Source: Escherichia phage phiWec187
Reading direction: 5' to 3' (one strand)
DNA: 64,000 bases
Sequence record: LC739536.1
In this document: piece after piece, positions 19,770 through 43,040 of the stretch
Numbering within the stretch: position 1 is the first letter of the stretch
How the letters are laid out: every line of letters begins with the position of its first letter
Notes under the pieces: model-generated
What the model saw: only the letters and a program-made list of their open reading frames with translations
Databases searched by the model: none
Told to the model about the DNA's origin: nothing
Made by a program: the position numbers and the translations under genes

Positions 19770-19798
19770 TTGACAAACGCAAAAAAGTATGCTACCCT
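19770..19798 (+). promoter_or_regulatory. sigma70-like promoter in divergent region
   Basis: TTGACA-N17-TACCCT, followed by GC-rich hairpin. Confidence 0.3.
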
Positions 19799-19979
19799 AA
19801 CCCCCGAAAAACGCCGAGCGCAGCGAGGGGGTGTTATCTAATCTTGTGATACATGATCTAACAGACAACTGAGTAGTCTACATATAGCACTATGTTATGT
19901 CTATAATACTAACATACATACTCTATACTAACAATAGATTCTTTATTAATTTTATTATTAATTAAATAATAAATATCTA

Positions 19980-20008
19980 TTGACTTTAGATCTATCTGTA
20001 TGTAGAGT
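19980..20008 (+). promoter_or_regulatory. sigma70-like promoter for Prs-like gene
   Basis: TTGACT-N17-TAGAGT with AT-rich UP-like tract 19920-19979. Confidence 0.5.
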
Positions 20009-20047
20009 AGAGAACATAAAGTCCTAACTCAACTAAGGAGATAAACA

Positions 20048-20941
20048 ATGAAAGTTAGTATTCTACATGGTGTTGACTGTTATGTTACTGATGTAGACGT
20101 TAAAGTCTTTACATTCTCTGGTGGAGAACAACATGTTCAACTAGATACGAATCTATCAGGTTTCAATCATGCTACAGACAGAATCTTACTCTCTTTAGAA
20201 GTAAGATCTGCTAAAGACTTGATGACTTTGGTTATGACTAAGAATGCATTGGACAATATGCTATATCATAAACCATATTGTGTTGATTTACTCATGCTGT
20301 ATGTACCGTATGCACGACAAGACAGAGTGTGTGAGCCTGGGGAAGCATTCGGAGTTAAAGCCTTTGCTTCTATAATTAATTCATTAAATTTCTCACGTGT
20401 TATCGTTGCTGATCCACATAGTGATGTTACTCCAGCAGTGTTTGACAGACTCTGTGTAATACCTCAAGAAGAGATTGCTTACGAAACTTTAAAGTGGAAG
20501 TTACGTATGGAGAATTTTGCTCTTGTTAGTCCTGATGGTGGTGCTCTTAAGAAAATATTTAAATTATCTAAGAAAATGTCTTTAGATGTGTTCTGTGCAG
20601 AGAAGGTTAGAGATACTGCAACAGGTGCTATTGTTCGTACAGACATTTCTGTACAGGATTTCAATAAGCGTAACCTGATGATCGTAGATGATATCTGTGA
20701 CGGCGGTAGAACTTTTATTGAATTGGCTAAAGTGCTACGTGCTCGTAACGCAGGTAAGATTGAGTTATATGTTACACACGGTATCTTTTCTAAAGGTCTT
20801 AAAGAGTTAAGTGAGCACTTTGACTGCATTCATTCTCTTAATGTGTGGGAAGATAACATCCAAGAAGATTCCGGTGTTCTTGTTAAGAATCAGTCAGATT
20901 TGCAACAACAAATTGTATCTCCATACGTGTGGAATTTTTAA
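20048..20941 (+). CDS. prs: ribose-phosphate pyrophosphokinase family protein (Prs-like)
   Basis: PYARQDR, DPHSD, VSPDGG and DDICDGGRT signatures; consensus promoter and AAGGAG RBS upstream. Confidence 0.8.
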   Translation: MKVSILHGVDCYVTDVDVKVFTFSGGEQHVQLDTNLSGFNHATDRILLSLEVRSAKDLMTLVMTKNALDNMLYHKPYCVDLLMLYVPYARQDRVCEPGEAFGVKAFASIINSLNFSRVIVADPHSDVTPAVFDRLCVIPQEEIAYETLKWKLRMENFALVSPDGGALKKIFKLSKKMSLDVFCAEKVRDTATGAIVRTDISVQDFNKRNLMIVDDICDGGRTFIELAKVLRARNAGKIELYVTHGIFSKGLKELSEHFDCIHSLNVWEDNIQEDSGVLVKNQSDLQQQIVSPYVWNF

Positions 20942-20951
20942 ATAATAAGTG

Positions 20952-20980
20952 TTGACAATAGGGAGTATGCTTAGTAAGAT
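20952..20980 (+). promoter_or_regulatory. sigma70-like promoter for NadV-like gene
   Basis: TTGACA-N17-TAAGAT; -10 lies inside inverted repeat GGGAGTAT...ATACTCCC. Confidence 0.5.
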
Positions 20981-21012
20981 ACTCCCACACTAACAAACAA
21001 GGAGACATAACT

Positions 21013-22746
21013 ATGAATATTTTTGCACCTTTTGCTACTGATTGGTATAAACCTGGTCACAAGCAGATGTACAACCAAAATACAAAACTCATTTTCTCTA
21101 ATTTAACTCCTCGTAATGATAAAAACTTTGCACACTATGCAGATCGTGAAGCACGTGGTGTAATTGTTTTAGGTATTCGTCGAGCAGTTACTGATGCTCT
21201 TGTAACTATGTGGGATGGCTTCTTTAAAATGTCTCGTAGTGCAGCAGTAAATAAATTTTATCGTATGTCTAAGAATGCATTAGGTGCTTCTGCTCCTTCT
21301 GCTGAATGTTGGGGAGAATTGCACGATTTAGGTTATCTTCCGCTAGAAGTTCGATCTCTGCCAGAAGGTGTTTTGTGTCCTATTGGTGTTCCTGTGTTTA
21401 CTGTGCATAACACTTTAGAAAAATTCTTTTGGTTAACTAACTATGTGGAAACACTCTTGTCAGATGAAACTTGGAAGACAATGACTAATGCCACAGCAGC
21501 TTTTCAGTATAAGCGTATCGCTATGGCGTATGCGATGGCAACGTGTGATAACATTGATCACGTTAATTTCCAGTGTCATGACTTTAGCCTACGTGGTTTA
21601 AGCAATATCGAAGATGGTTATAAGAGTGGTATCGCTCATTTGGCATCTTTCACAGGTACAGATAATATTCTGGCTATTGAAACTGTGCATGATTACTATG
21701 GTATTGATTATGATCAGTTTGTTGCAGGTTCTATTCCGGCAACAGAACATTCAGTAGCAACGACTAACATTGGAGCTATTGTTGAAGATCTGAAGAAACA
21801 TTTCCCACATCTTAAAGATGATGTTGATGGGCTTCGTTATGTAGCAGAGAAAGAGTTTCTTCGCCGCTATATTGAAGAAATTGTTCCAGAAGGTTTTTGT
21901 TCATATGTAGCAGATTCTTATGATTACTGGGCTGTCTTGACTCGCATTCTGGTAGAATTGAAAGAGTCCATTATGTCACGAAATGGTCGTCTTGTTATTC
22001 GTCCAGACTCAGGAGATCCGGTTAAAGTTGTTGCAGGATACAATGTTGAATCTTTTGATAACTATGAAGACCTTTTAAATAATGGTATTGCTACAGCCAC
22101 TGAAGTAGTACATTTGGCTGATGTTAATAAGTATTACAATGTTCTTCAGGATTGCAGTGTTGCTGATTGTATTGATGAAACTTATGAGATTCCTTATTGT
22201 GAAGCAGTAGGTTCTATTCAAATCCTTTGGGAAGTGTTTGGTGGTACTATCAACCGAAAAGGCTACAAGGTTCTTGATCAGCACATCGGTATGATTTATG
22301 GTGATTCTATTACTGTTGAACGAGAACACGAGATCTTACGCCGACTGAAGAAGAAAGGTTTTGCAGCTTCCAATATTGTATTTGGTGTTGGTAGTTATAC
22401 TTATCAGTTCAATACACGAGATACTTTTGGTTTTGCTGTTAAAGCAACAGGTAGTATCATCGGTGAACACGAAATTTTGGTAAGTAAGGAGCCTAAAACT
22501 GATCCTGGTAAACGCTCTGCAAAAGGTTTTATTAAGGTTGTTAAGGATACAAATGGTAAACTTTCTCTTGTGGATAATCTTTCTTTTAAAGATATCCAAG
22601 ATGAAGACAATGAGTTAAAAGTTATCTTCAGGGATGGTACGGTTATTACACCACAAGTAGAAGGACGTGATGAAACATTTACTGATATCCGTAACCGTGT
22701 TGATGTAGAGGTTCTTCGTACTATGGGAACCATCCAGGTTGACTAA
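21013..22746 (+). CDS. nadV: nicotinamide phosphoribosyltransferase family protein (NadV/NAMPT-like)
   Basis: 577 aa; N-terminus ATDWYKPGHKQMY is NAMPT-like; own promoter. Confidence 0.75.
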   Translation: MNIFAPFATDWYKPGHKQMYNQNTKLIFSNLTPRNDKNFAHYADREARGVIVLGIRRAVTDALVTMWDGFFKMSRSAAVNKFYRMSKNALGASAPSAECWGELHDLGYLPLEVRSLPEGVLCPIGVPVFTVHNTLEKFFWLTNYVETLLSDETWKTMTNATAAFQYKRIAMAYAMATCDNIDHVNFQCHDFSLRGLSNIEDGYKSGIAHLASFTGTDNILAIETVHDYYGIDYDQFVAGSIPATEHSVATTNIGAIVEDLKKHFPHLKDDVDGLRYVAEKEFLRRYIEEIVPEGFCSYVADSYDYWAVLTRILVELKESIMSRNGRLVIRPDSGDPVKVVAGYNVESFDNYEDLLNNGIATATEVVHLADVNKYYNVLQDCSVADCIDETYEIPYCEAVGSIQILWEVFGGTINRKGYKVLDQHIGMIYGDSITVEREHEILRRLKKKGFAASNIVFGVGSYTYQFNTRDTFGFAVKATGSIIGEHEILVSKEPKTDPGKRSAKGFIKVVKDTNGKLSLVDNLSFKDIQDEDNELKVIFRDGTVITPQVEGRDETFTDIRNRVDVEVLRTMGTIQVD

Positions 22747-22817
22747 ATAAAAACTTCGTGATAAGATTAAGGTAAGGAGAGCCTGCAACTGCCCTGGATG
22801 GGCTTCACGAAGGATTT

Positions 22818-23039
22818 ATGAAACAACATAATTTTTATTTTCGTTGCCGAGCCTGTAACAGACACTTGACTAATCACTCCCGTAGAGACAGGAATGGTAA
22901 TATTCAAGAGTCGGATCTATGCTCGATTTGTACAAGTTTGGCATTCGACGACAGTCCCGAAAGGGTTTATCAACATCAAAGTGTAACTGATCTTCTTCTA
23001 AATTACACAGCACCAGAGGAGGAATTAGATTTCACATAA
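22818..23039 (+). CDS. zinc-ribbon protein with acidic C-terminal tail
   Basis: CRACNRH...CSICTS pair; ends PEEELDFT, similar to the NrdB tail. Confidence 0.5.
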   Translation: MKQHNFYFRCRACNRHLTNHSRRDRNGNIQESDLCSICTSLAFDDSPERVYQHQSVTDLLLNYTAPEEELDFT

Positions 23040-23052
23040 TTAAGGAAACAGT

Positions 23053-23166
23053 ATGTCTACAGAAATTATTTTTGGCTTATCTGTTTTTATTGCTATTGTA
23101 TCTTTTGTATGCGGTTATACACTATTTTTATTGCTGTTGTATCTTTGGTATGCTGCTCTACACTAG
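23053..23166 (+). CDS. small hydrophobic peptide (about 37 aa)
   Basis: Not in track; AAGGAA RBS then ATG; hand translation is one transmembrane-like segment. Confidence 0.25.
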   Translation: MSTEIIFGLSVFIAIVSFVCGYTLFLLLLYLWYAALH

Positions 23167-23200
23167 GTTACAGATCAAGAAAAAATATTGTAAAAACTAG

Positions 23201-23230
23201 TTGACAACATAGCTAGTTATTTGCTAAGAT
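23201..23230 (+). promoter_or_regulatory. sigma70-like promoter
   Basis: TTGACA-N18-TAAGAT. Confidence 0.45.
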
Positions 23231-23260
23231 AAGCCCAAGTTAAACAAAAAGGAGAAAACT

Positions 23261-23527
23261 ATGACAGAACGTACTTATGGTAAAGAATTGATTGAGAAGC
23301 ACGTATTGATTGATAATAAAGGTGGAGCAATCTTTATTTTTGAACCTGAATCAGTTCTTACTGAAAACGAAAATGGTAGCGTTAGCCTTAAAACAGAAAG
23401 TTTGGTAATTGACTTCCTTGCTCTTCTGGATGAAATGGGGCTTCCTCACGAAGAAGAAGCAGCTATTGCTTTGATTGCAGTTCTTCTGGAGAAACGCGAA
23501 GCTGGTGAAATGACCCAGTATGCTTAA
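23261..23527 (+). CDS. hypothetical protein
   Basis: 88-aa ORF with promoter TTGACA-N18-TAAGAT upstream. Confidence 0.5.
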   Translation: MTERTYGKELIEKHVLIDNKGGAIFIFEPESVLTENENGSVSLKTESLVIDFLALLDEMGLPHEEEAAIALIAVLLEKREAGEMTQYA

Positions 23528-23534
23528 TATTCAA

Positions 23535-23610
23535 GGTTCCATAGCTCACTGACGAGAGCGCACACCTCATAAGTGTCGAGGGCAGGGATTGTAACCCTGG
23601 GGAACCACCA
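23535..23610 (+). tRNA. tRNA-Met or Ile2 (anticodon CAT)
   Basis: Hand-folded cloverleaf; anticodon loop CTCATAA; encoded CCA. Confidence 0.55.
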
Positions 23611-23641
23611 TTTAAAAGGAGGTGCTATGCATCTCCTATAT

Positions 23642-23727
23642 GCAAGTGTGGTGGAATTGGTGATACACATTGTGCTTAAAACGCAACGCTTAAATGCTTG
23701 AGGGTTCGAATCCCTCCACTTGCACCA
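23642..23727 (+). tRNA. tRNA-Leu (anticodon TAA), long variable arm
   Basis: 7-bp acceptor, loop CTTAAAA, T-loop GGTTCGAATCC, encoded CCA. Confidence 0.6.
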
Positions 23728-23743
23728 AAACCTAAAAATATCT

Positions 23744-23772
23744 TGACATTTACTTAGTTTTTTGTTATAGTT
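23744..23772 (+). promoter_or_regulatory. sigma70-like promoter within tRNA cluster
   Basis: TTGACA-N17-TATAGT, 10 nt before tRNA at 23783. Confidence 0.5.
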
Positions 23773-23782
23773 ACTATGAAAA

Positions 23783-23864
23783 CGGGGTGTATCTCACCTG
23801 ACTTCTAATCAGGCGTTAACCGAGTAATTGGAGTATGCAGGTTCGAATCCTGTCACCCCGGCCA
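23783..23864 (+). tRNA. atypical tRNA-like gene (possible anticodon TCT)
   Basis: Perfect acceptor and canonical T-arm; stem-loop CCTGA-CTTCTAA-TCAGG; D-arm region too short. Confidence 0.4.
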
Positions 23865-23882
23865 AAAAGTTTTAAAAACTAC

Positions 23883-23911
23883 TTGACAAGCAAGATAGTT
23901 TTATGTTAGAT
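23883..23911 (+). promoter_or_regulatory. sigma70-like promoter within tRNA cluster
   Basis: TTGACA-N17-TTAGAT upstream of tRNA-Ser at 23928. Confidence 0.45.
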
Positions 23912-23927
23912 TTAAAGTATGGTAACA

Positions 23928-24017
23928 GGAAGGTAGGGCGCAGCGGTGCGCAACCAGGTTTGAACCCTGGCCCATTGTAGCGATACGGTGATGGTTCGAC
24001 TCCATTATCTTCCTCCA
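23928..24017 (+). tRNA. tRNA-Ser (anticodon TGA)
   Basis: Anticodon loop TTTGAAC, long variable arm, encoded CCA. Confidence 0.6.
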
Positions 24018-24196
24018 AATTCTCTTAGGAGCTTTATGAATTATAAAACTATTGGACAGGTTGTTACCTGAGTTAAGATTGTAAATAATAAAGTTGTTTA
24101 TGAGTATTCTAATCTTCAACAATCCGAAGATGGTAAGAATATTCGTATGGTAAAAACAGAACAAAAAGATTCCGGTTGTTTTGAATAATTAAAAAC

Positions 24197-24282
24197 GGTA
24201 GATTGGTGAAATGGTAGCCACAACAGTTTGCTAAACTGTCGTCGGAAACGGCGTGTAGGTTCAAGTCCTACATCTACCGCCA
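24197..24282 (+). tRNA. tRNA-Ser (anticodon GCT)
   Basis: Anticodon loop TTGCTAA, variable-arm hairpin, T-loop GGTTCAAGTCC, CCA. Confidence 0.6.
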
Positions 24283-24416
24283 AGTTATCTTTAATGTAGC
24301 TTGTAATCTTACTTTAGCAGAGTAAACTTTCGGCAGATGGTGGCAGCCATTTTACCGATACCCCAATACTTCATAGCTAAGTGCCGCAAACACTGGCTAT
24401 TTTAAAGATAATTTAT

Positions 24417-24492
24417 ACATCGTTAGCTTAGTTGGTAGAGCAAGGTGCTTTTAACTCCAAGGTCGAAGGTTCGAATCCTTCACGATGTACCA
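24417..24492 (+). tRNA. tRNA-Lys (anticodon TTT), tentative
   Basis: D-arm GCTTAGTTGGTAGAGC; loop CTTTTAA with one stem mismatch; CCA. Confidence 0.5.
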
Positions 24493-24497
24493 AACAC

Positions 24498-24584
24498 GTA
24501 GGTATCGCATAGCGGCAATTGCTGGAGACTGTAAATCTCCTGCCCTTCGGGGCTTCGTTGGTTCGAGTCCAACTACCTGCACCA
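24498..24584 (+). tRNA. tRNA-Tyr (anticodon GTA)
   Basis: Anticodon arm GGAGA-CTGTAAA-TCTCC; variable-arm hairpin; CCA. Confidence 0.65.
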
Positions 24585-24591
24585 AATTAAA

Positions 24592-24676
24592 GATGGATTG
24601 GCCTAGTGGTTGGGCGACGGACTGTTAATCCGTGAACGAAAGTTCTAGCAAGGTTCAAATCCTTGATCCATCGCCA
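24592..24676 (+). tRNA. tRNA with anticodon GTT (Asn) and unusually long variable arm
   Basis: Anticodon arm ACGGA-CTGTTAA-TCCGT; 15-nt variable hairpin; T-loop GGTTCAAATCC; CCA. Confidence 0.5.
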
Positions 24677-24680
24677 AATA

Positions 24681-24749
24681 GTGCTTGTAGAGTTAATAGA
24701 AACCTCTAGAATTTTCTAGAATTGTAGGTATCAAATCCTACCAAGCAAA
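24681..24749 (+). ncRNA. degenerate tRNA-like element
   Basis: 6-bp acceptor-like pairing and T-arm-like hairpin but anticodon loop of 6 or 8 nt and no CCA. Confidence 0.25.
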
Positions 24750-24755
24750 TATTTT

Positions 24756-24830
24756 GCTCCTATCGTATAACGGCTATTACGGTTGCCTTGTAAGCAACTT
24801 ATCAGGGTTCGAGTCCTTGTGGGAGCACCA
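24756..24830 (+). tRNA. tRNA-Thr (anticodon TGT)
   Basis: Anticodon arm GTTGC-CTTGTAA-GCAAC; T-loop GGGTTCGAGTCC; CCA. Confidence 0.65.
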
Positions 24831-24852
24831 ATTTAACTCTAAAGGAGTGTAT

Positions 24853-25176
24853 GTGACAGAAAAAGAGTTAGAGAAATATTTTAATATCAATGTTTTCGAT
24901 GGCTTTGATGATATTGAAGATGTTGAAAGATATTATGAAGTAGAGTTAGATAAGGATAACATTGTAATTCTTTCTGCCACTTACGATTGTGCATATTATG
25001 AAGGCGAATCTCACGTTTATTTCTATGATATGAAAACATCTTTGTTTTATGAAGTACACGCATATCATTGTTCTTGCTATGGCTTAGAAGGTCAGTGGGA
25101 ACCTGAAGAAATAGGTGATTTGGACTTTACTATTGCATATCTAAACAGACGTGGTTCATCTACTATTTTAAAATAA
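24853..25176 (+). CDS. hypothetical protein inside tRNA cluster (GTG start)
   Basis: Track start 24754 overlaps tRNA-Thr; AAGGAG at 24842-24847 then GTG at 24853. Confidence 0.4.
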   Translation: MTEKELEKYFNINVFDGFDDIEDVERYYEVELDKDNIVILSATYDCAYYEGESHVYFYDMKTSLFYEVHAYHCSCYGLEGQWEPEEIGDLDFTIAYLNRRGSSTILK

Positions 25177-25190
25177 ATATCAAAAGCCTC

Positions 25191-25220
25191 TTGACAAAGG
25201 GGCTAATAATATGTTAGAGT
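25191..25220 (+). promoter_or_regulatory. sigma70-like promoter within tRNA cluster
   Basis: TTGACA-N17/18-TAGAGT upstream of tRNA-Gly at 25232. Confidence 0.45.
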
Positions 25221-25231
25221 AATATTGTTAA

Positions 25232-25306
25232 GCGGGTATAGTGTTAATGGTAGCATATGAGGTTTCCACCCTCCAGGTGCAGGTTCAAGTCCTGTTACTC
25301 GCTCCA
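25232..25306 (+). tRNA. tRNA-Gly (anticodon TCC)
   Basis: Anticodon loop TTTCCAC; T-loop GGTTCAAGTCC; CCA. Confidence 0.6.
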
Positions 25307-25737
25307 AGATTATTTAAATGGAATCGCTAGAGAAAATTTCTCTTTTCGCTCATGGTTTTCTCCTTCAAACTCTAGCGGTTCTTTTTAAGTGATTTTTTAG
25401 TTTATTGGAGATTCACTTCCTTAGTGTGAGCTAAAATCGAGGAGCCATCGAACTGTCTGATTAATGATTTGCGAATCATTATAGTTTTAAGACCCCGGTA
25501 GTTTTATGGTGTACCTCTTGAATGTGAATGATGACGGGTTTATGGTTATCCTGGTCGTTAAATATCCAAAAACCTATGTTCCCCTTGAGGGCTTGCGCAG
25601 GTAATGCCAATAAGTCCTGCATTTTCATTTAAAAGAGAATTTATAATGGAAAAAGATGAACTTAAGTATGCTAAGCCTCTGGCTTCTGCTGCACGAAAAG
25701 CAGTTCGTCACTTTGTGGTAACACTGAAGTAATTTAT

Positions 25738-25812
25738 TGGAGATTAGCCTAGTGGGAAGGCAACGGCCTTTGAAGTCGTGATGACTAGGTTCGATTCCTA
25801 GATCTCCAGCCA
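25738..25812 (+). tRNA. tRNA-Gln (anticodon TTG)
   Basis: Anticodon arm ACGGC-CTTTGAA-GTCGT; T-loop GGTTCGATTCC; CCA. Confidence 0.65.
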
Positions 25813-25819
25813 AGATTTA

Positions 25820-25895
25820 CAGTGCGTAGCGCAGTTGGTAGCGTGGGAGCCTTGGACGCTTCAGGTCGCAGGTTCGAGTCCTGCCGCACTGACCA
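25820..25895 (+). tRNA. tRNA-Pro (anticodon TGG)
   Basis: C1:G72 acceptor; anticodon loop CTTGGAC; CCA. Confidence 0.65.
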
Positions 25896-25900
25896 AATTT

Positions 25901-25975
25901 GCAGAGATAGCTGAGACGGATTAGTGCTACCCTGAAAAGGTAGAAAGGATGGATCGTTACCATCTCTCTGCACCA
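25901..25975 (+). tRNA. tRNA-Phe (anticodon GAA)
   Basis: Anticodon arm CTACC-CTGAAAA-GGTAG; CCA. Confidence 0.65.
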
Positions 25976-26052
25976 AATAACACCATCCAAGGAGTAGACT
26001 TGGTTAACTGTCAATAGCACATTGAGGCTTCTTACAGTGGTGTACTTATTAT

Positions 26053-26137
26053 GGCTAAGTGGTGGAATGGTATACACGATACGCTTAGAACGTATTGCCC
26101 CAAGGGATTGTGAGTTCGAGTCTCACCTTAGCTACCA
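26053..26137 (+). tRNA. tRNA-Leu (anticodon TAG), long variable arm
   Basis: Anticodon arm ATACG-CTTAGAA-CGTAT; T-loop GAGTTCGAGTCTC; CCA. Confidence 0.65.
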
Positions 26138-26152
26138 AATTATTACAGATTG

Positions 26153-26231
26153 TGCGGGATAGAGGAGTCTGGTCGTCCTCGCCAGTTTCATATGCTGGAG
26201 ATCATCGGTTCGAATCCGATTTCCGCCTCCA
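26153..26231 (+). tRNA. tRNA with anticodon CAT (Met or Ile2), mismatched first acceptor pair
   Basis: Anticodon arm CCAGT-TTCATAT-GCTGG; T-loop GGTTCGAATCC; CCA; 1:72 pair U-C. Confidence 0.5.
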
Positions 26232-26289
26232 ATAAATACCTCCCTTCTGGTGTAATGATTAAATTACATTGACACTTCAAGGAACTCAT

Positions 26290-26372
26290 AGCCGGGTAGA
26301 TTTAAAAGAGTATGGTACTCAATATGGCTCCAAACCATAGATCAGGGGGTTCGATTCCTCACCTTGCTGCCA
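26290..26372 (+). tRNA. atypical tRNA-like gene, possible tRNA-Trp (anticodon CCA)
   Basis: Anticodon arm TATGG-CTCCAAA-CCATA; T-loop GGGTTCGATTCC; CCA; D region too long. Confidence 0.35.
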
Positions 26373-26377
26373 ATTAT

Positions 26378-35296: not shown

Positions 35297-35845
35297 ATGC
35301 TTATAGCTAGTGACCTTGTACCTATGATCCGCATATTGGTATTTAACCCTTCACAAGAAACACTTCCTGATGCAATGATTGAACAAATCATTCAAACGTG
35401 GATAGATGTGCTAGGGAATGATGATGCCAATAAATGTGCTGTACTGTGGAACAGTCTGATCTCTGTACTTGAATACTTGTGGAATACAGACGTACTAAAT
35501 CATAATACACAAACAGGTGGTGCTCTTTCTAGAAAAGAGAAAGTTGGCGAAGTACAGGTTGAAGTAACCTTTGGTACTGGACAGACAGAATACATTTCAC
35601 CTTGGGAAAATATCTATAAAGGATATCTTGATGGTGATATGATGATACCTGGTTGTACTTCTGGTAGAGGTGTAACGAGTAAAGTATTAGTTGGTGGTGT
35701 TGATGCTCGCGAAATTGATCGTGTCAACAGTGATCCTAATTCAGTAAATGGTTTAGGTGGTGTTGGTAGTGTAGATCGACATACGAGAAATATCAAATAT
35801 ACCAGAAACTATGGCCCCATTGGTTACTACAGAAGGGATAAATAA
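35297..35845 (+). CDS. hypothetical head-tail joining protein
   Basis: 182 aa between capsid and tail genes. Confidence 0.3.
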   Translation: MLIASDLVPMIRILVFNPSQETLPDAMIEQIIQTWIDVLGNDDANKCAVLWNSLISVLEYLWNTDVLNHNTQTGGALSRKEKVGEVQVEVTFGTGQTEYISPWENIYKGYLDGDMMIPGCTSGRGVTSKVLVGGVDAREIDRVNSDPNSVNGLGGVGSVDRHTRNIKYTRNYGPIGYYRRDK

Positions 35846-36333
35846 TGAAATGTGAGATCACACGTGGCGATGATATGTCGTTAGATGAATATTTTATTAA
35901 AATGCTGGCTCTAGATAATATAGAAATAGATGCTGGTTTTCTTACTGCTGTTCGCCATCCAGAATCAGATCTCACTATCCCTGCAATTGCTGCCATACAA
36001 CAGTTTGGTAATGAAACAAACAATACTCCTGCACGTCCGTTTTTAACGGACGGTGCAGTCCATGCCAGTAAAGAAATACCTAAGCATTTTGAAGAAGTGT
36101 TTAGAAATTATTTACTTCGTGGAAGGGGTTTAGCTGCCTTTGAACCTATTGCAAAAGTTTCACGAGAATCTATTGCTAAAGCGATTGCTCTGCAACGTTA
36201 TAGACCGCTATCTCCTGTGACTATTAAAATCCGTAGAGATAAAGGTAACTACTCTTCTCATATTCTTATTGATACTGGACACTTAATTAACAGTATCGAA
36301 TCAGAAATCAAGAAGGGTCGTTCTAAAAAATAA
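35845..36333 (+). CDS. hypothetical structural protein
   Basis: 162-aa ORF, translationally coupled. Confidence 0.35.
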   Translation: MKCEITRGDDMSLDEYFIKMLALDNIEIDAGFLTAVRHPESDLTIPAIAAIQQFGNETNNTPARPFLTDGAVHASKEIPKHFEEVFRNYLLRGRGLAAFEPIAKVSRESIAKAIALQRYRPLSPVTIKIRRDKGNYSSHILIDTGHLINSIESEIKKGRSKK

Positions 36334-36334
36334 C

Positions 36335-36363
36335 TTGCAATAAGTCTGTTTTTGATGTATACT
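36335..36363 (+). promoter_or_regulatory. sigma70-like promoter
   Basis: TTGCAA-N17-TATACT. Confidence 0.45.
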
Positions 36364-36377
36364 AAAAAGGAGATACA

Positions 36378-36794
36378 ATGCTATTAGACCAATTTACTCT
36401 CCTTGATCTTACAACGTATCAGGGTCGTAAAAGAACCTATGTTCAAGATCCTGATTCGCCAATTTCCAATATGGGTAATACAGTAGCATACGAAGACTTT
36501 ACAATAGAGGCTGCAAGTTTGCAACCAATATCAGGTAGAACACTTCAAGCACTGCCAGAAGGATACAGATCTAAGGCACAATATAGCTTCTGGACAAAAA
36601 CAGAAATCAGAGGCATTCAGCAAGGATCAGATCAATTATCTGACCAAATACTAATAGATGGACAATGGTTTTCCATTTATTCTTTGAAAGACTGGACAAG
36701 AACATCTTTCTTAATACACACACATTGTGTTGCTATTCTAGATGACCAGAATAACACCTATTCTTATTCTGAGGAGGGTGGTAATTTTGGCTAA
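36378..36794 (+). CDS. hypothetical structural protein
   Basis: 138 aa; promoter TTGCAA-N17-TATACT upstream. Confidence 0.35.
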   Translation: MLLDQFTLLDLTTYQGRKRTYVQDPDSPISNMGNTVAYEDFTIEAASLQPISGRTLQALPEGYRSKAQYSFWTKTEIRGIQQGSDQLSDQILIDGQWFSIYSLKDWTRTSFLIHTHCVAILDDQNNTYSYSEEGGNFG

Positions 36795-37443
36795 TATCTA
36801 TGAACAAATTGAATTGTATGAAAATACGATATTATTAAATATCGCTAAGTTCTTACAAAGACTCGTGGGGCTTCCGGTTTATGTTATGGATAAGCCATTT
36901 GTTAAACCAACAACCCCATATCTGACATTACGTATTGTATCATCTGATGATTCAGGTGGTTGGTCACAAAAATATTCTTTTAGTGAAGATGCGTTTTCAT
37001 ATCTAATGGACAATAAGTATGAAATAGAACTTATGGCTTTTAGAGGAAGACCAATGACACTTTTAAGTTATGTTCTTGCGGCACTTCGTGGTGCAGATGA
37101 ATTAAAATACCAGTATCTTTATTCCAAAGGTATTAGCTTCTTGTCTGCAACAAATGTTGCACAGGCTAACACTGTTCTGGATGGAGATAAAACTGAACAA
37201 AGAGCGAGAATATTTCTTACATTCAATACTACGATGGTTATTGAGGATTTAGTAACTACCGAAATTGAAGCAATTAATATGAACATTCATTCGTTCAGAG
37301 ATGATTACGATGATCCTACTCCAATAGATCTTCCTTTGGATAAGATTTACATTGTTGCTCACAGAAGTAAAACCTATTACTTTACGACGACTGATGATGG
37401 ATCATTAATTAAGTATATCCCAACGGATAATTCATTGGAATAA
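36787..37443 (+). CDS. hypothetical structural protein (TTG start)
   Basis: Track start 36742 is inside previous gene; AGGAGG at 36772-36777 then TTG 36787. Confidence 0.35.
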   Translation: MANIYEQIELYENTILLNIAKFLQRLVGLPVYVMDKPFVKPTTPYLTLRIVSSDDSGGWSQKYSFSEDAFSYLMDNKYEIELMAFRGRPMTLLSYVLAALRGADELKYQYLYSKGISFLSATNVAQANTVLDGDKTEQRARIFLTFNTTMVIEDLVTTEIEAINMNIHSFRDDYDDPTPIDLPLDKIYIVAHRSKTYYFTTTDDGSLIKYIPTDNSLE

Positions 37444-37463
37444 AGTTTCTAACAGGAGCATAA

Positions 37464-38870
37464 ATGGCAACTTTTCGTGATAAGGTAGTTTCCGTAACCC
37501 TTACCTACGGTGCTACTTCAATTAGTGAAACACAGTTTGATATCCCTCTAATTCTTACAGGGCATAACGTTACTGGCAATCTTGTAGATTATTTCACTTC
37601 TTCAGACGCACTTCTGCAAGCAGGTTTTGGCACTGCCGATCCAGCTTATAAAATGGCAAAACTACTATTTGACGGTCTGTTCGCACCAGAACAAGTTATC
37701 GTCGGTAAGCGTGATGTTTCTAAAACGACTCTAACTCCAGTAGTTGAAGATAGTGCAACTTACGTTATCACTATTAAAGCAAATTCAAAAAGCAAGGACT
37801 TCAAGTTTGTTGCCGATGATACTGCAACTGCTCAAGAGATTGTTGTTGGTTTAACAGAAATGATCAACGCAGACGTAGTGTATAAAGAATTTTTCACTGT
37901 GTCAAACGATGGTAGTGTTATCACTGTAACCCCAGTTGCAGGTAAATACGCTACTATGGATAGTTCAGGATTCACAACTAACGTAGAATATGCAAATGAT
38001 ATCTTAGAAGATATTGCTAAAATTGCAGACTATGAAAACAGTTGGTTCTGGTTACTATCTGATTCTCACGCAGAACAAGATATTATCGATCTAGCAGGTT
38101 ATGTAGAAGAGCACGATAAAGTGTACTTCTTCTCTACCTCGCAACCAGGTGTTCTAACTAAAGAAGAAGATAACATTCTAGAACGCTTAGGTGATATGGG
38201 CTACAATAACACTTGTATGGCATTGTGGATGACTAACGCTGATACAGTGTTCCCAGAAGCTGCTGTAGTTGGTTCTATCTGCTCTGCAACACCAGGTACT
38301 ACTACCTTGCATGGTAAAACCCTTGTTGGTATCGAGATTGAAAAACTTGGTCAGACAGCAGAAAACTTTATCGTTCAACAGAATGGTAATATTTACCGTA
38401 AAGAACACGGTGTTCTGTTCTACCGTGATGGCTTCATGGTAAGTGGTTTCTATGTTGACTATGTGGTACACGCTCTGTGGTTCAAAGCTCGCGTAGAAGA
38501 ATCTCTGTTCGCTCTATTCAAACAGCAATCTATGCTTGGTAGTGGTGTTAGAGCAACTTCTGCTGGTCTTGCTTTGATTCGTCAGGCTGTTACTGCAAAC
38601 CCAATCCAAGTAGGTATTAACAATGGTTCTATTGCCAATGAGGTAGTAACTTCAGAGGAAACAGGACTTCTGGTAAGCCTTAAACCTACTATCTATATCC
38701 CATCTCGTGCAGATATGACTGATGCTCAAATCAATGCACGTTTGGTTGATGGTATGGTTATTGAATACGTATATGCTGGATTCTTCCACTATGTTAAAGT
38801 GCAGGTAAACGTTCTGACGAACCGCACTGCAAATAGCCAGAATTCCAATAGCTCTACTGTATCTTCATAA
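37464..38870 (+). CDS. putative tail sheath protein
   Basis: 468 aa in sheath, tube, chaperone, tape-measure order; hairpin downstream. Confidence 0.45.
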   Translation: MATFRDKVVSVTLTYGATSISETQFDIPLILTGHNVTGNLVDYFTSSDALLQAGFGTADPAYKMAKLLFDGLFAPEQVIVGKRDVSKTTLTPVVEDSATYVITIKANSKSKDFKFVADDTATAQEIVVGLTEMINADVVYKEFFTVSNDGSVITVTPVAGKYATMDSSGFTTNVEYANDILEDIAKIADYENSWFWLLSDSHAEQDIIDLAGYVEEHDKVYFFSTSQPGVLTKEEDNILERLGDMGYNNTCMALWMTNADTVFPEAAVVGSICSATPGTTTLHGKTLVGIEIEKLGQTAENFIVQQNGNIYRKEHGVLFYRDGFMVSGFYVDYVVHALWFKARVEESLFALFKQQSMLGSGVRATSAGLALIRQAVTANPIQVGINNGSIANEVVTSEETGLLVSLKPTIYIPSRADMTDAQINARLVDGMVIEYVYAGFFHYVKVQVNVLTNRTANSQNSNSSTVSS

Positions 38871-38876
38871 TTAAAA

Positions 38877-38900
38877 GCAGCGGGGGAAACCCCGCTTATA
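38877..38900 (+). terminator. hairpin after sheath-like gene (weak T tract)
   Basis: AGCGGGG-GAAA-CCCCGCT then TTATAT. Confidence 0.35.
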
Positions 38901-38928
38901 TGAAAAGTAGTATAAAAGGAGATCCACT

Positions 38929-39408
38929 TTGGATAAAATGCTTACTGGCGTAATGGCCTATGATCCTTCTCAAGTAATCCTGTCTTTGGGTGGTTGGGAA
39001 CCTTGGGGTTTCGCCGCAGATACCAAAATTGTTATTAACAAAACTAACGATATCATCAACCCATATTCAGGTACTGATGGTGACGTTTCCTTGGCTCTTA
39101 GTCGTAACCGTTTAGGTACGCTAACAATGTCACTGCAACGTACTTCCCCAGCAAACGAAGTTCTTGCTGCTTATGCACAAACGATGTATTCTACTCGTCA
39201 AGTAGCATTTAGCGTATATCTAGAAGACCCTCGCGGATATTATATCAGCACAATTGGTTGGATTCAAAGCCAACCGGACGACACTATTGGTGAAACTATT
39301 CAAGAAAACCAATGGGTAATTGGTCTTAAAGATGCAAGCCTACTTCGTTCTACTGTAGGTGTTGGTGTTAACGCACTTAACTCTATTAGTGCTCTAACTA
39401 TTCAGTAA
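38929..39408 (+). CDS. putative tail tube protein
   Basis: 159 aa after sheath-like gene; terminator at 39414-39440. Confidence 0.4.
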   Translation: MDKMLTGVMAYDPSQVILSLGGWEPWGFAADTKIVINKTNDIINPYSGTDGDVSLALSRNRLGTLTMSLQRTSPANEVLAAYAQTMYSTRQVAFSVYLEDPRGYYISTIGWIQSQPDDTIGETIQENQWVIGLKDASLLRSTVGVGVNALNSISALTIQ

Positions 39409-39413
39409 CAAAA

Positions 39414-39440
39414 AGGGCAGAAATGCCCTTTATTTTTAAA
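39414..39440 (+). terminator. rho-independent terminator after tube-like gene
   Basis: AGGGCA-GAAA-TGCCCT then TTATTTTT. Confidence 0.5.
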
Positions 39441-39451
39441 GAGAGGAAATA

Positions 39452-39934
39452 ATGGAACAACAAAAAGATAATACTATTGCAAAATTTGCTCGTCCAGAAG
39501 TAATGGTTGAAATTGATCTGGATGAAGGACGCAGTGTAAAATTTAGAGTTCTCAAGTGGAGTCCAACTAAAGTTTTTGAAAGGATTCCAGAACTAGGTAG
39601 TGTACTAGCTGTTCCTATGACAATGTATAATACTGCTCTTATGTCAGCAGACGAAGATCTAGAAGCTCGTATTGCTATGGCGCTGATCCAATTATTCAGT
39701 GGTCTGGAAGAAAAAAACTTAGCCGCATTCTTACGTAAAATTTTAGATGAAGTTTACACAGAAGCAGGTCACAGTGTTTCCGATAATTTTGATGAATTGT
39801 TTTTTGCTCACCCAGAATTAGTTGTTGACTTAGCTGCAAAAGTTCTTGAGGTGAACTATGCCCCTTTTTTCAAACGAGGTTTCGGAAAACTGTTGACCCA
39901 ATTTCAAGGAATAGAGACTCTAGCGAAGAGTTAA
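39452..39934 (+). CDS. putative tail assembly chaperone (zero-frame product)
   Basis: 160 aa immediately upstream of tape measure; slippery heptamers near 3' end. Confidence 0.45.
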   Translation: MEQQKDNTIAKFARPEVMVEIDLDEGRSVKFRVLKWSPTKVFERIPELGSVLAVPMTMYNTALMSADEDLEARIAMALIQLFSGLEEKNLAAFLRKILDEVYTEAGHSVSDNFDELFFAHPELVVDLAAKVLEVNYAPFFKRGFGKLLTQFQGIETLAKS

Positions 39935-40209
39935 GTCCGGCAATTAAATCAGCAATTGAAATTGCCTCACAAACCCTTAGCTTGACATGGTATGAAGTAA
40001 TTCTTTGTAAGGTAATTAAGAATACCTCCGAAACCTTGTCCTCATTAGATAATTATGGTGTAGATTATCTACTTAAAATTTATGAATATTTAACATTTGA
40101 AGACTATGTACAAGATCTTCACGTTAAAGATGCGGATATTAAACGTGGTCAACAGAGAACAATAAGAGAACTGGATACGGCTATGAAAAAATTAATTCCA
40201 GATTCATAA
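39862..40209 (+). CDS. -1 frame extension of tail assembly chaperone
   Basis: -1 frame open from 39850 to 40209; track ORF 39982-40209 lacks an ATG and is read as the fusion C-terminus. Confidence 0.4.
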   Translation, partial: PFFQTRFRKTVDPISRNRDSSEELSPAIKSAIEIASQTLSLTWYEVILCKVIKNTSETLSSLDNYGVDYLLKIYEYLTFEDYVQDLHVKDADIKRGQQRTIRELDTAMKKLIPDS

Positions 40210-40228
40210 GTAATACGGAGGATTACCC

Positions 40229-42208
40229 TTGTTAGAAATTAACACTTCCAAGATTAAGAATACAGTAACGTTTACTGTAGATAAAGACAGTTTAAAAAAT
40301 ACTAAAGACGCAATTAAAAACCTTAAAACTTTTACAGAATCTATTGAACCATCTTTAAATATGACTAAAATGCGTCGTCAATTTAAAAGTATGGAAGAGT
40401 ATGCTAAAAGAATAAGGCAGCAAATGTCAGGTCTTGGCGGCGGTAATCCTCCACCAATCCCACCAACCGGAGGTTCAAGCGGTGGTGGAAAAGGAGGAAG
40501 TGGTAGAGGTGGTTCTGGATCTTCTGGAGGACGTAAAACACCAGAGGAAAGAGCCGCAGAAGCCGCCGCTAAACGTGCAGCACTTGCTAATATGAAGCAA
40601 GACGATTTTAGTTTTAAAGCTATGCCTTTTACAAAAGCAGACAGCAGAATTCTAGAAAAATCTAAAAAGATTGTAGAAGAAACTGTTGAACTTTATCGTA
40701 AAGGTGTAATCACTAGCCAACAAATGAATAATACTTTGGCTAGACAGTTAGAAGAACTACGAAGATCTCATAAAGAGAAGAATGCACAACTTCTTGATGA
40801 AGAGAGAGCTAGACGCAGAATTGCCCGTCTGCAAGAAGCAGAAGATAAAAGAAGACAGCGTATCCGAGAAAGAGAAAGAAAGGATTTCGAACGTCAGCAA
40901 AGAAGAGAAAAAGAAGCAAGACAACGCGACAGACAACGTAAGCTATCTGGTGTAGGTAATGCTGCTATTGCTCTTAACCCTGCTATGTTTGGTGCTGCTC
41001 TTTTAGGTGCTGGTTTATATCAAGGTATAAGTAAAATTTCCGAAGGTATTACTGCATCGGCAGAGCGTGTTAATATGGTTAGTAGAGGTGGTCAGAACGT
41101 ACAGGTAAACCCTAACGCAATCTTAACAATGCGTACTTGGGGTGAAATGAACGGTGTAGACTCTGCTAGTATTATTAAAGCTATTGATAACCTTAAAGAC
41201 GTTCGTGAACGTTTAGGTAACACTGTACTCCACTCTGAATTTGATGAAAAATCAGGTAAATGGAAAGGTGGAGATAGTGGTATTAATGAAATCATGAACC
41301 AATTTGGTTGGACAAAAGAAGATGTTGCTAAATTCCAGAATAGACCTTTAGACTTTGTTCAAGCACTTGTTAATGAAGGTCAAAAAAGAGGAATGAACTC
41401 TGCGCAAATTGGTCGTCTGATGGAAAACCTTGGTGATGACTTAATGCACTACCAACGTATGTTTTTGGATAATGGTAAAGAGTTTATGGAAGTCCTGAGA
41501 ATGTTAAGTAATTCAGGTGCAACTCTTAACGACGAAAACATCCAAGCAGCACAAGATTTTGTTAAGCTAAGAGCACAAATTAATGCAGCAGGAGAAGGTT
41601 TTACCAATAACTTACTTGTAGGTTTTATGGATGGTTTAAAATCTGCACCAGATTTTGCAGAGAATATGAAAACTTTCCAAGAGGCTGCTCGTGGTCTTGG
41701 TGAAATGTCTGGTAGTATTGTAAGTAGCCTTGCAAAAATTGCAAAATATTTCCTTGATTTTTCAAATAAGGTTGGGCCAAAAAATAATACTAAAGAAGCT
41801 GTAAGAGATTATTATAATGGTACGCAGTATGGGTACGATGCACAGGTTGGTGGTAATCCTTGGGCTTATTGGCCTATTGGAAGAGATCAACATCTACCTG
41901 AAAATCAACCTTTAGGTAACTTTGATAGTAGTTTCTTAACTAGTGCCTTAAATCCAAGTGCTTCTAGTATTGGTTACAATAGACCTGATTTAACAGCATC
42001 TATGCTAACACCACGCCAAGGTGTTCCAGTACCGTTAAGTGTAGAGAATACAGTTGTTATCCCAGACAACGCATTCCAGATTAATGTTATTCCAGATGGT
42101 TATGGTTTTAGTAATTATCTAGATGCGACAATGAATACCAGTTTTAGTAACTTCTCACAAGGTTTAACTCTTCAGTTAAGCAGTGGACAATCTTCTACTG
42201 GTGGTTAA
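40229..42208 (+). CDS. tail tape measure protein
   Basis: 659 aa, TTG start after GGAGG; Gly-rich stretch and Arg/Glu/Lys coiled-coil; follows chaperone pair. Confidence 0.6.
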   Translation: MLEINTSKIKNTVTFTVDKDSLKNTKDAIKNLKTFTESIEPSLNMTKMRRQFKSMEEYAKRIRQQMSGLGGGNPPPIPPTGGSSGGGKGGSGRGGSGSSGGRKTPEERAAEAAAKRAALANMKQDDFSFKAMPFTKADSRILEKSKKIVEETVELYRKGVITSQQMNNTLARQLEELRRSHKEKNAQLLDEERARRRIARLQEAEDKRRQRIRERERKDFERQQRREKEARQRDRQRKLSGVGNAAIALNPAMFGAALLGAGLYQGISKISEGITASAERVNMVSRGGQNVQVNPNAILTMRTWGEMNGVDSASIIKAIDNLKDVRERLGNTVLHSEFDEKSGKWKGGDSGINEIMNQFGWTKEDVAKFQNRPLDFVQALVNEGQKRGMNSAQIGRLMENLGDDLMHYQRMFLDNGKEFMEVLRMLSNSGATLNDENIQAAQDFVKLRAQINAAGEGFTNNLLVGFMDGLKSAPDFAENMKTFQEAARGLGEMSGSIVSSLAKIAKYFLDFSNKVGPKNNTKEAVRDYYNGTQYGYDAQVGGNPWAYWPIGRDQHLPENQPLGNFDSSFLTSALNPSASSIGYNRPDLTASMLTPRQGVPVPLSVENTVVIPDNAFQINVIPDGYGFSNYLDATMNTSFSNFSQGLTLQLSSGQSSTGG

Positions 42209-42215
42209 TGCATAA

Positions 42216-42242
42216 AGCCTCGCTTCGGCGGGGCTTTTTATT
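42216..42242 (+). terminator. rho-independent terminator after tape measure gene
   Basis: GCCTCGC-TTCG-GCGGGGC then TTTTTATTT. Confidence 0.55.
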
Positions 42243-42246
42243 TGTC

Positions 42247-42278
42247 TTGACAAAGAGTTGTTTTTCGTGATAAAATGA
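42247..42278 (+). promoter_or_regulatory. sigma70-like promoter with extended -10
   Basis: TTGACA-N17 then TGATAAAAT after tape-measure terminator. Confidence 0.45.
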
Positions 42279-42323
42279 GTGATAAGGGAGAATGTTTCTT
42301 ATCACATTAAGAGGTAAAATTAT

Positions 42324-43040
42324 ATGGCAGCAAACACTCCAGAACAACACGTTCAAGCGGTTTATAAAGCGGAACAAGAAATAAATTCTACAAAAAACAC
42401 AAATAACTCTGCCTCTACTGTGAAAGGGGAGAATGGTTTTTGTATTTTAGCAAGTGTTTACAATAGTGCAAGTGATCAATATATTCAAAACTACCAAGCT
42501 ATAGTTTTTGATGCTGTTCCAAATATCGGTGTAAAACGTCAAGCTGATGTTACGAGCTATCCTGTAGAAAATGGTGCTAATGTATCGGATCACGTTCAAG
42601 TTAAAAATAATACTTTCTCTTTATCAGGAATGATTACAGAGACACCTGTAAGATTGATGCGAGATATGCTATATAGTGCTGGTGTTAACGGTACTCGTAT
42701 CAGTCAAGCAATTACTTACTTAGATAAAATATTTGATCAAAGACAGCCTATCATTTTAATAACAGAACATAAGGTGTATGAGAATGTTATTTTGAAAGGC
42801 ATATCATATGAATATCAAACAGAGTATGCAATGCAATTTGACTTGGAATTTGAACAAGTAAGATTAGTTTCTTACGGAGAAACCAACGCTATTGCACTTA
42901 AGACTCAACCAAATAAAAACACAGGTGTTAAGAACAAAACAAACGCAACAGGTAGCAAACCAGATGCTGATTTGAACAAACGAGCAGGACAAGCAACAGG
43001 CACTGAACATTTGAGTAATGACAGTCCAGATGGTAAGTAA
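42324..43040 (+). CDS. hypothetical tail/baseplate protein
   Basis: 238 aa after tape measure; extended -10 promoter upstream. Confidence 0.35.
   Translation: MAANTPEQHVQAVYKAEQEINSTKNTNNSASTVKGENGFCILASVYNSASDQYIQNYQAIVFDAVPNIGVKRQADVTSYPVENGANVSDHVQVKNNTFSLSGMITETPVRLMRDMLYSAGVNGTRISQAITYLDKIFDQRQPIILITEHKVYENVILKGISYEYQTEYAMQFDLEFEQVRLVSYGETNAIALKTQPNKNTGVKNKTNATGSKPDADLNKRAGQATGTEHLSNDSPDGK

Follow-up and report, generated by a model that had tools for sequence, protein, structure and literature searches.

The closest described counterpart of the system analysed here is that of phage rV5, a related large myovirus. Its genome carries 33 promoters resembling TTGACA-N15-17-TATAAT, 11 of them with an extended -10, and these include sites ahead of the tRNA block and of some late genes (Kropinski et al. 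2013, PMC3606486). From this distribution its authors proposed that the host polymerase is perhaps used unmodified, and they reported no homologues of gp33, gp45 or gp55 (PMC3606486). In Certrevirus, an 'early' promoter, AAAA(N3-4)TGTTGAC(N17-19)TATAAT, was assigned to early/middle genes only (Buttimer et al. 2020, PMC7344957). The T4-type elements termed PeSLs consist of an AT-rich upstream region, a sigma70-like promoter and an adjacent terminator stem-loop, and lie at the borders of variable cassettes (Arbiol 2010; Comeau 2014, PMC4122927). Here we describe a set of near-consensus sigma70-type motifs in a 64,000-nucleotide stretch of Escherichia phage phiWec187 (LC739536.1; hereafter the window, whose positions are used throughout), which has a gene order in common with rV5. 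We consider it probable (roughly three chances in four) that these motifs are functional promoters of a phi92-like phage for the host sigma70 holoenzyme, that they form one architectural class, and that the inverted repeats found at several of them are RNA hairpins rather than operators.

Judged by its sequence, the window belongs to a phi92-like (Justusliebigvirus) E. coli myovirus. The segment 19500-32000 aligned over its full length to Escherichia phage phi92, muut and other Justusliebigvirus genomes (Stephanstirmvirinae) with 98.8-98.9% identity, and the G+C content of the genome is 37%. Genes were assigned from the phi92 annotation and Pfam.

The pattern TTGACW-N17-TAnnnT matched 17 times on the two strands of the window, against 3.1 matches expected, and none of 100 shuffles reached 17. 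When spacers of N16-18 were permitted, 14 sense matches were found in the plus-strand gene block, 12 of which sit within its intergenic DNA (4.2 kb in all). Against these 12, shuffling the intergenic segments with dinucleotides preserved gave 0.23 expected matches, with a maximum of 3 in 1000 shuffles. On the antisense strand of the plus-block intergenic DNA no match was present, and coding DNA was at background (3 sense and 5 antisense matches vs 2.8 expected). A loose sigma70 scan (at least 9 of 12 positions matching) was not enriched (63 observed vs 61.4 expected). It is the near-consensus class alone that stands out, not generic sigma70-like sites. The twelve intergenic sites, each with TTGAC[AT] and TAnnnT, are given below (TGn denotes a TG at -15/-14; ORF, open reading frame).

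19770-19798, plus strand: P19770, TTGACA-N17-TACCCT with TGn; orphan, with no ORF for ~250 nt.
19980-20008, plus strand: P19980, TTGACT-N17-TAGAGT; Prs-like gene 40 nt downstream.
20952-20980, plus strand: P20952, TTGACA-N17-TAAGAT; NAPRTase-family gene 33 nt downstream.
22739-22767, plus strand: P22739, TTGACT-N17-TAAGAT with TGn; overlaps the NAPRTase stop and marks the right-hand boundary of the NARP1-like cassette (see below).
23201-23230, plus strand: P23201, TTGACA-N18-TAAGAT with TGn; ORF 23261-23527 31 nt downstream.
23743-23771, plus strand: P23743, TTGACA-N17-TATAGT with TGn; at 11/12 consensus positions the best in the window; tRNA 23783-23861 12 nt downstream.
23883-23912, plus strand: P23883, TTGACA-N18-TAGATT with TGn; tRNA-Ser 23928-24017 16 nt downstream.
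25191-25220, plus strand: P25191, TTGACA-N18-TAGAGT with TGn; tRNA-Gly 25232-25306 12 nt downstream.
26566-26636, plus strand: terminator-promoter composite with P26608, TTGACT-N17-TATCCT with TGn; ORF from ATG 26657.
30058-30087, plus strand: P30058, TTGACA-N18-TAAAGT with TGn; portal gene 65 nt downstream.
31752-31780, plus strand: P31752, TTGACA-N17-TAGACT; ahead of the protease, scaffold, decoration and major capsid genes.
42217-42276, plus strand: terminator-promoter composite with P42247, TTGACA-N18-TAAAAT with TGn; Dit-like gene 48 nt downstream.

All 12 sites have the orientation of the genes that follow, and the distance from promoter to start codon or tRNA 5' end is 12-65 nt. The spacer is N17 in seven and N18 in five. 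The nine sites in the 19.7-26.7 kb block comprise the orphan, two for the Prs-like and NAPRTase genes, three before small ORFs and three before tRNAs. They would form a dense array serving short transcription units, in which each NARP1-like gene has its own promoter and three tRNA genes begin 12-16 nt past a -10. An earlier, sequence-only reading of this DNA had placed at least twelve such motifs, with N17 spacers, between 19980 and 42278, before plus-strand genes that include head, tail and tRNA genes and throughout the structural-gene block. Their abundance, far above chance, and their placement were borne out. Eleven of the sites lie in that interval, with the twelfth (19770) 210 nt upstream of it, and the spacer is N17 in 6 of the 11 but N18 in the other 5. 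The distribution does not agree with that description: three sites (30058, 31752 and 42247) belong to the structural module, whereas nine are in the 19.7-26.7 kb block.

The sites also have features in common on which the search did not depend. An A-rich UP-like tract 5-9 nt 5' of the -35 (the -41 to -45 region) is shared by the 12 sites, as is A at the two positions directly after the -35, and the TGn extension is present in nine. The architecture of the class would then be a UP-like A tract, a perfect TTGAC[A/T], a 17/18-bp spacer, usually TGn, and a TAnnnT -10 of rather low quality. As in E. coli extended -10 promoters, the TG at -15/-14 would offset a weak -10; but where classical promoters of that kind frequently have no good -35, the window sites have a perfect one. 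The Certrevirus promoter is alike in its UP-like A tract, consensus -35 and long spacer, in its occurrence in related phages that lack an RNA polymerase gene, and in its clustering amid small ORFs and nucleotide-metabolism genes; the difference is that here the same promoter type also heads three structural operons.

Conservation in relatives points in the same direction. In Phapecoctavirus KKP 3954, whose portal is 83% identical, matches to the full pattern (strict sites) occupy homologous positions in the tRNA block and ahead of three genes (portal, protease and Dit-like); the hexamers of these promoters have been retained, whereas spacers and flanks have diverged. Ten metagenomic relatives, with portal identity down to 73%, always carry TTGAC-N17/18-TGn-TAnnnT before the portal gene, even in surroundings that cannot be aligned; spacers and spacing differ among them, and a 5' hairpin is kept. 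The -35 of the protease promoter, TTGACA, is invariant in 11 relatives. In KKP 3954 the terminator, -35 and -10 at 42217-42276 are conserved, as is the composite at 26566-26636 (L002 10479). In their spacing, in their above-chance, co-oriented intergenic placement and in hexamers conserved amid diverged flanks, the sites behave as sigma70 promoters do.

Three promoters would head structural operons: P30058 that of the portal, P31752 that of protease, scaffold, decoration and capsid, and P42247 the genes from the Dit-like tail protein through baseplate and fibres. From 31780 to 42247 (10.5 kb with the capsid, neck, sheath, tube and tape-measure genes) no strict site was found. A strong intrinsic terminator stands directly after the major capsid gene (34865-34895, plus strand; 13-bp stem and T run), with no strong promoter 3' of it, and the neck and tail genes past it presumably rely on read-through. 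Terminator read-through is a common means of setting the capsid:tail stoichiometry. Such read-through would account for expression of the other structural genes (34.9-42.2 kb), helped at most by weak promoters at 27036 and 36335. The weaker candidates and the matches inside genes are as follows.

27036-27065, plus strand: putative weaker promoter, TTGCTT-N18-TATGAT with TGn, matrix score 8.1; follows a terminator-like hairpin and T run (~26994-27028) and heads a small-ORF/spanin/large-terminase operon.
36335-36363, plus strand: putative weaker promoter, TTGCAA-N17-TATACT, score 9.5; 15 nt before ORF 36378.
52916-52944, plus strand: in-gene match, TTGACT-N17-TAAACT with TGn; 109 nt before ORF 53053.
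47775-47804, plus strand: in-gene match.

Weaker position-weight-matrix matches within 120 nt of structural gene starts were at chance level (7 vs 5.2 expected). The in-gene matches at 52916 and 47775 could be internal promoters or chance occurrences, matches in coding regions being at chance level.

We then turn to the polymerase. No protein is annotated as RNA polymerase, sigma or anti-sigma in muut, a complete close relative. A Pfam scan, in which only families represented in Pfam are visible, matched the 146 hypothetical proteins of muut to 38 families; among the 25 best-scoring of these no sigma, RNA polymerase, AsiA, MotA, RpbA or antiterminator family was present, and the DNA-binding candidates were one HTH_36 and one weak HTH_11 only. 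A PHROGs scan returned only families without annotated function. rV5 has an Srd-like protein, gp11, for which tblastn and blastp found no homologue in the available phi92-like sequence. T4 late promoters (TATAAATA) are read with gp55, gp33 and gp45. The likeness to our sites is that both stand ahead of structural genes in a large virulent myovirus using the host core polymerase. The difference is that TATAAATA occurs in the window at chance level (8 vs 6.9 expected), never upstream of a structural gene start, and that neither the Pfam scan nor the annotation revealed a gp55-like sigma. Similarly, the extended-10-only motif TGnTAnAAT (the rV5 'late' type) was not enriched (21 vs 21.1). When the regions preceding 33 structural genes were searched for enriched k-mers, the top candidate was the 8-mer CTTAATTC, whose p value of 3e-5, uncorrected for ~3800 candidates, is unconvincing.

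The most economical reading of the structural genes is that their operons are transcribed by the host sigma70 holoenzyme from the three conserved promoters, with terminator read-through. The sequence-only reading had likewise favoured the host enzyme over a phage sigma factor or polymerase for the structural genes; host-type promoters and the lack of any such phage gene in our searches agree with this, but most of the sites drive non-structural genes. In a stronger version, the host sigma70 polymerase, unmodified, would transcribe the whole structural block from its recurrent promoters, with no late factor needed and with timing derived only from template copy number or similar. The three conserved consensus promoters at the heads of structural operons, the failure to find a phage sigma, a phage polymerase or an enriched late-type motif, and the same suggestion by the rV5 authors (PMC3606486) all speak for it. 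Yet the structural module holds only 3 of the 12 sites, with a gap from 31.8 to 42.2 kb; the class is distinct from the early promoters described below, which suggests differential regulation, and many small early proteins have no known function. Moreover, the 'unmodified' state of the polymerase is beyond sequence evidence and cannot be inferred from it. We regard this version as possible but doubtful.

The early region lies outside the window. In muut (NC_052657, 66.5-74.4 kb, minus strand; L009) it contains 18 strict sites, one per small ORF, and its counterpart in KKP 3954 (OR067838, 1.7-10.7 kb, minus strand; L024) contains 17. These 35 early promoters were compared with 21 promoters of the window type (12 from the window and 9 from KKP 3954).

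Spacer N16: early 24/35, window-type 0/21 (Fisher p = 1e-7).
Spacer N17: early 11/35, window-type 11/21.
Spacer N18: early 0/35, window-type 10/21 (Fisher p = 1e-5).
TGn extension: early 10/35, window-type 15/21 (Fisher p = 0.002).

In addition, a conserved GC hairpin, cacaTAGGGCGGGAAAtggTTTCCCGCC, is located at ~+5 to +28 of 13 of the 18 early promoters in muut and 15 of the 17 in KKP 3954, and is absent from the window. As roles for this hairpin, stabilisation of the mRNA 5' end, recognition by a regulator and membership of a repeated PeSL-like cassette are all conceivable. The window promoters thus constitute a second sigma70-like architectural class, and the split into two classes is compatible with class-specific timing.

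Extended -10 promoters can still work when the -35 is no longer recognised, T4 AsiA being an example. With this in mind, a phage factor that has escaped recognition (an anti-sigma, an activator or an RNA-binding protein) might shift the host polymerase from the N16/17 early class to the N17/18 TGn class, so that the window promoters would be middle/late ones with no more than an outward likeness to ordinary sigma70 sites. Two statistically distinct architectures in two genera, a conserved early 5' hairpin that is absent from the window, and the tolerance of extended -10 promoters just mentioned fit such a switch. We hold it to be rather unlikely: no candidate factor was identified, the perfect -35 is kept in the window promoters, unlike in T4 middle/late promoters, and the difference between the classes could equally reflect strength tuning or the common ancestry of duplicated early cassettes. 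In a broader scheme, the whole programme would run on host sigma70 polymerase with time encoded in the promoter family (early, N16/17 with the cacaTAGGGCGGGAAAtggTTTCCCGCC hairpin; non-early, for NAD rescue, tRNAs, portal, capsid operon and baseplate, N17/18 with TGn), the switch being made by a factor acting on the early hairpin or by template supercoiling, with no sigma replacement. The sensitivity of promoters to supercoiling is set by spacer length, 16-nt spacers being an acknowledged exception (PMC9303308). This scheme appears improbable to us, and both supercoiling and a hairpin-recognising factor as the mechanism of class timing are speculations.

Several points weigh against our main reading of the window sites. 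Their -10 hexamers are weak (mean 4.1/6 consensus matches), so that activity would depend on the -35, TGn and UP-like elements. Neither the portal nor the protease gene is preceded by a strict site in FFH2 (rV5-like), GAP31 and phiTE, more distant relatives that were examined with pattern and folding tools alone. This distinguishes rV5-type genomes from the window, and makes the structural promoters a trait of the subfamily Stephanstirmvirinae, not a universal one; in these three phages the strict sites are clustered in the NAD/tRNA/small-ORF block. The rV5 authors proposed a separate late-gene motif, tGTGGTAAAATA (PMC3606486), which is unenriched in the window. Since the window sites differ in architecture from the early promoters, class-specific regulation is possible, and the ~140 small proteins of no known function, one of them with an HTH_36 domain, might include an unrecognised polymerase-binding factor or late activator. 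Finally, the literature searched held no transcript 5' ends, in vitro transcription or timing for this phage group, and no transcriptome of any Stephanstirmvirinae or Vequintavirinae phage.

A different account of the recurrence is that promoter and stem-loop form mobile or recombinogenic regulatory cassettes like the T4-type PeSLs, spread by gene shuffling. The NARP1-like gene pair is missing from KKP 3954, where homology picks up ~7 nt ahead of the P22739 -35 (one junction examined), and PeSLs were defined as motifs that combine a terminator with an early promoter and lie at indel borders (PMC4122927); the terminator-promoter composites at 26566-26636 and 42217-42276 can be compared to them. 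As in PeSLs, a stem-loop lies just upstream of the promoter at these two composites and at 25185-25220, and P22739 is at a cassette junction. There are also differences. At 31752 and 20952 the stem-loop overlaps the promoter, about half of the window sites have none, and those present vary in sequence and in position (upstream, overlapping or downstream). The window copies share only the hexamers and the A tract, which would make them poor substrates for homologous recombination; sequence-conserved copies are confined to the early region, where they lie downstream of the promoters. With so little sequence shared among the copies, we did not file them as PeSLs. The cassette account, which depends on one junction and would in any case leave promoter function intact, is unlikely.

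The inverted repeats bear on the second part of our reading, that they act as RNA. The best of them is in the interval between the portal and protease genes, and two further stem-loops lie close to promoters of the structural module.

31766-31806, plus strand: terminator-like RNA hairpin, 15 conserved pairs (31766-31801) and U tract, with its 5' arm over the P31752 spacer and -10.
30099-30120, plus strand: stem-loop in the 5'-untranslated region (5'-UTR) of the portal transcript, TCTACCCC-TTCAAT-GGGGTAGA; z = -2.6, -14.9 kcal/mol.
42279-42305, plus strand: stem-loop GTGATAAGGGA-GAATG-TTTCTTATCAC, beginning 3 nt past the P42247 -10.

The first hairpin (stem p < 0.003) extends to 18 pairs in a single-sequence fold (31761-31802), and the 71-nt region 31740-31810, of which it is the main part, folds with -18.6 kcal/mol (z = -3.95). 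Among 11 sequences the 31766-31801 stem shows one compensatory pair, three changes from G-U to A-U/U-A and one invariant G-U, with 1 of 165 cells broken, and the tract that follows reads GUUUUU or GUUUUC. G-U pairs exist only in the plus-strand RNA, which argues for an RNA hairpin rather than a symmetry of duplex DNA. Judged by sequence, the portal transcript has here a terminator-like hairpin that overlaps the next promoter. Because its 5' arm covers the P31752 spacer and -10, transcripts from P31752 would bear the 3' arm only and escape the hairpin. The stem is A-U rich, so that termination there may or may not be efficient.

The portal 5' hairpin was compared qualitatively across relatives. 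They have other sequences at this position (TCTGCCC/GGGCAGA; GGTGAGGTTGTAT.../...ATACAGCCTTGCC), and the stems vary in length and sequence. The KKP 3954 counterpart of 42279-42305 is GGGAAGAT-CTTGC-ATCTTCC(C), and P42247 transcripts would hold only part of the 5' arm of this stem-loop. In lambda-type antiterminated late promoters, a constitutive promoter is closely followed by a terminator that a Q-like protein overcomes. Compared with this arrangement, the T run is weak behind 30099-30120, there is none behind 42279-42305, and the 25 best-scoring Pfam families of muut include no antiterminator. Classical terminators abut the promoters in the two composites: AGCCTCC-TTATC-GGAGGCT and a T run (26566-26590) within 26566-26636, and GCCTCGC-TTCG-GCGGGGC and a T run, 3' of the tape-measure gene, within 42217-42276. 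The recurrent theme is one of RNA hairpins tightly coupled to promoters, not of repressor binding sites. Two sorts of hairpin may be distinguished: hairpins of the first sort would end or cap the transcript arriving from upstream and share DNA with the following promoter, whose own transcripts then carry only the 3' arm; those of the second are 5'-UTR stem-loops that probably stabilise the new transcript.

The proposal of the sequence-only reading that several -10 elements overlap inverted repeats, with 20961-20986 as its example, is correct in part. That repeat is real: on the plus strand, GGGAGTAT-N10-ATACTCCC straddles the P20952 -10 (fold z = -2.8; stem p ~0.03). A 9-bp repeat, AACTAGTTG/TAGCTAGTT, brackets the P23201 -35 (p = 0.003), and at 25185-25204 the hairpin AGCCTCTT-GACA-AAGGGGCT holds the P25191 -35 in its loop (fold z = -3.3). 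Together with P31752, about 4 of the 12 promoters have an individually significant repeat over the -10 or -35; overlap is not general, and 8 of the 12 have no significant repeat. The further idea, that these repeats serve as operators for a phage or host DNA-binding repressor, did not hold up well and is very unlikely. Stems over the -10 or -35 do exceed expectation (5 of 24 tests at p <= 0.04, binomial p = 0.002), the genome encodes HTH-domain proteins, and in GAP31 and FFH2 repeats also bracket the -10 of the equivalent promoters. These repeats are unrelated to ours (the GAP31 equivalent of P20952 bears GGGGTG-TAGAAT-CACCCC), and in the window no palindromic operator is shared, the arms being unrelated in sequence between promoters. 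A common operator is thereby excluded, and no single repressor could recognise all of the sites. The best stem, 31766-31801, needs its G-U pairs and is followed by a U tract, as fits plus-strand RNA. A last alternative, chance matches in AT-rich intergenic DNA, could appeal to the 37% G+C and to the unenriched loose scan, but it is ruled out for practical purposes by the shuffles, the strand bias and the conservation of the hexamers in diverged relatives.

Over the rV5 proposal the conceptual gain is little, the same pattern and inference having been reported there; what is new is the split into two sigma70-type architectures and the recognition of the supposed operators as RNA hairpins. The promoters and terminators that bound the operons add up to a predicted map of transcription in phi92-type phages. 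These phages recognise hosts multivalently and are candidates for therapy, and the map helps to plan time-course experiments for the subfamily. On it, each of the anti-defence NAD-reconstitution genes has a strong host-type promoter, and the structural operons begin at conserved host-type promoters. The promoters and the insulating terminator-promoter units are also reusable engineering parts.

The genes around these sites are arranged as follows.

1-19638, minus strand: replication and nucleotide-metabolism genes (phi92 annotation).
19639-20047: divergent intergenic region.
20048-20941, plus strand: Prs-like (Adps-like) gene (Pfam PF14572/PF00156), which opens the plus-strand block.
21013-22746, plus strand: NAPRTase-family (Namat-like) gene (Pfam PF04095), followed by small ORFs.
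23535-26453, plus strand: 15 tRNA genes (ARAGORN), with one extra by Rfam at 23783-23861.
27970-30054, plus strand: spanin and large terminase.
30152-31720, plus strand: portal gene.
31817-32296, plus strand: XkdF-type prohead protease; scaffold, decoration and major capsid protein follow, to 34848.
Up to 42208, plus strand: neck, sheath, tube, chaperones and tape measure.
42324-43040, plus strand: Dit-like tail protein, with ~20 kb of baseplate and fibre genes behind it.

The reading frame at 31805-32296 carries the RefSeq label 'DNA methyltransferase' in phi92, FFH2 and phiTE, but Pfam identifies it as an XkdF-type prohead serine protease (PF14550, E = 2.6e-11). Its start is likely the ATG at 31817 rather than 31805.

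The Prs-like and NAPRTase-family pair, in which each gene has a separate consensus promoter, fits the description of NARP1 (Adps plus Namat), an anti-defence NAD+ reconstitution pathway (bioRxiv 10.1101/2024.02.11.579819). Upstream of this pair, the orphan P19770 is followed by a hairpin CCCCCG...CGAGCGCAGCGAG...GGGGG (19770-19840 for promoter and hairpin together); KKP 3954 has kept both the -10 and the core CGAGCGCAGCGAG. P19770 may yield a small RNA or an origin-associated transcript. A -10 like that of P19770, TGCTACCCT, was found once more in muut (L007 19328).

The extra tRNA at 23783-23861 (plus strand) scored 38.6 bits with Rfam, over the gathering score, was missed by ARAGORN and is unannotated in phi92. 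Its anticodon loop is CTTCTAA (TCT, Arg), its D region is odd, and it aligns poorly to the normal tRNA-Arg(TCT) of KKP 3954 or FFH2. The gaps between tRNA genes at 24283-24416, 25307-25737, 26232-26377 and 26454-26553 (plus strand), in which no gene was called and Rfam gave no match at E <= 0.1, contain tRNA-like 3' halves, such as GGGGGTTCGATTCCTCACC...GCCA at ~26350-26377; these may be decayed tRNAs or small stable RNAs.

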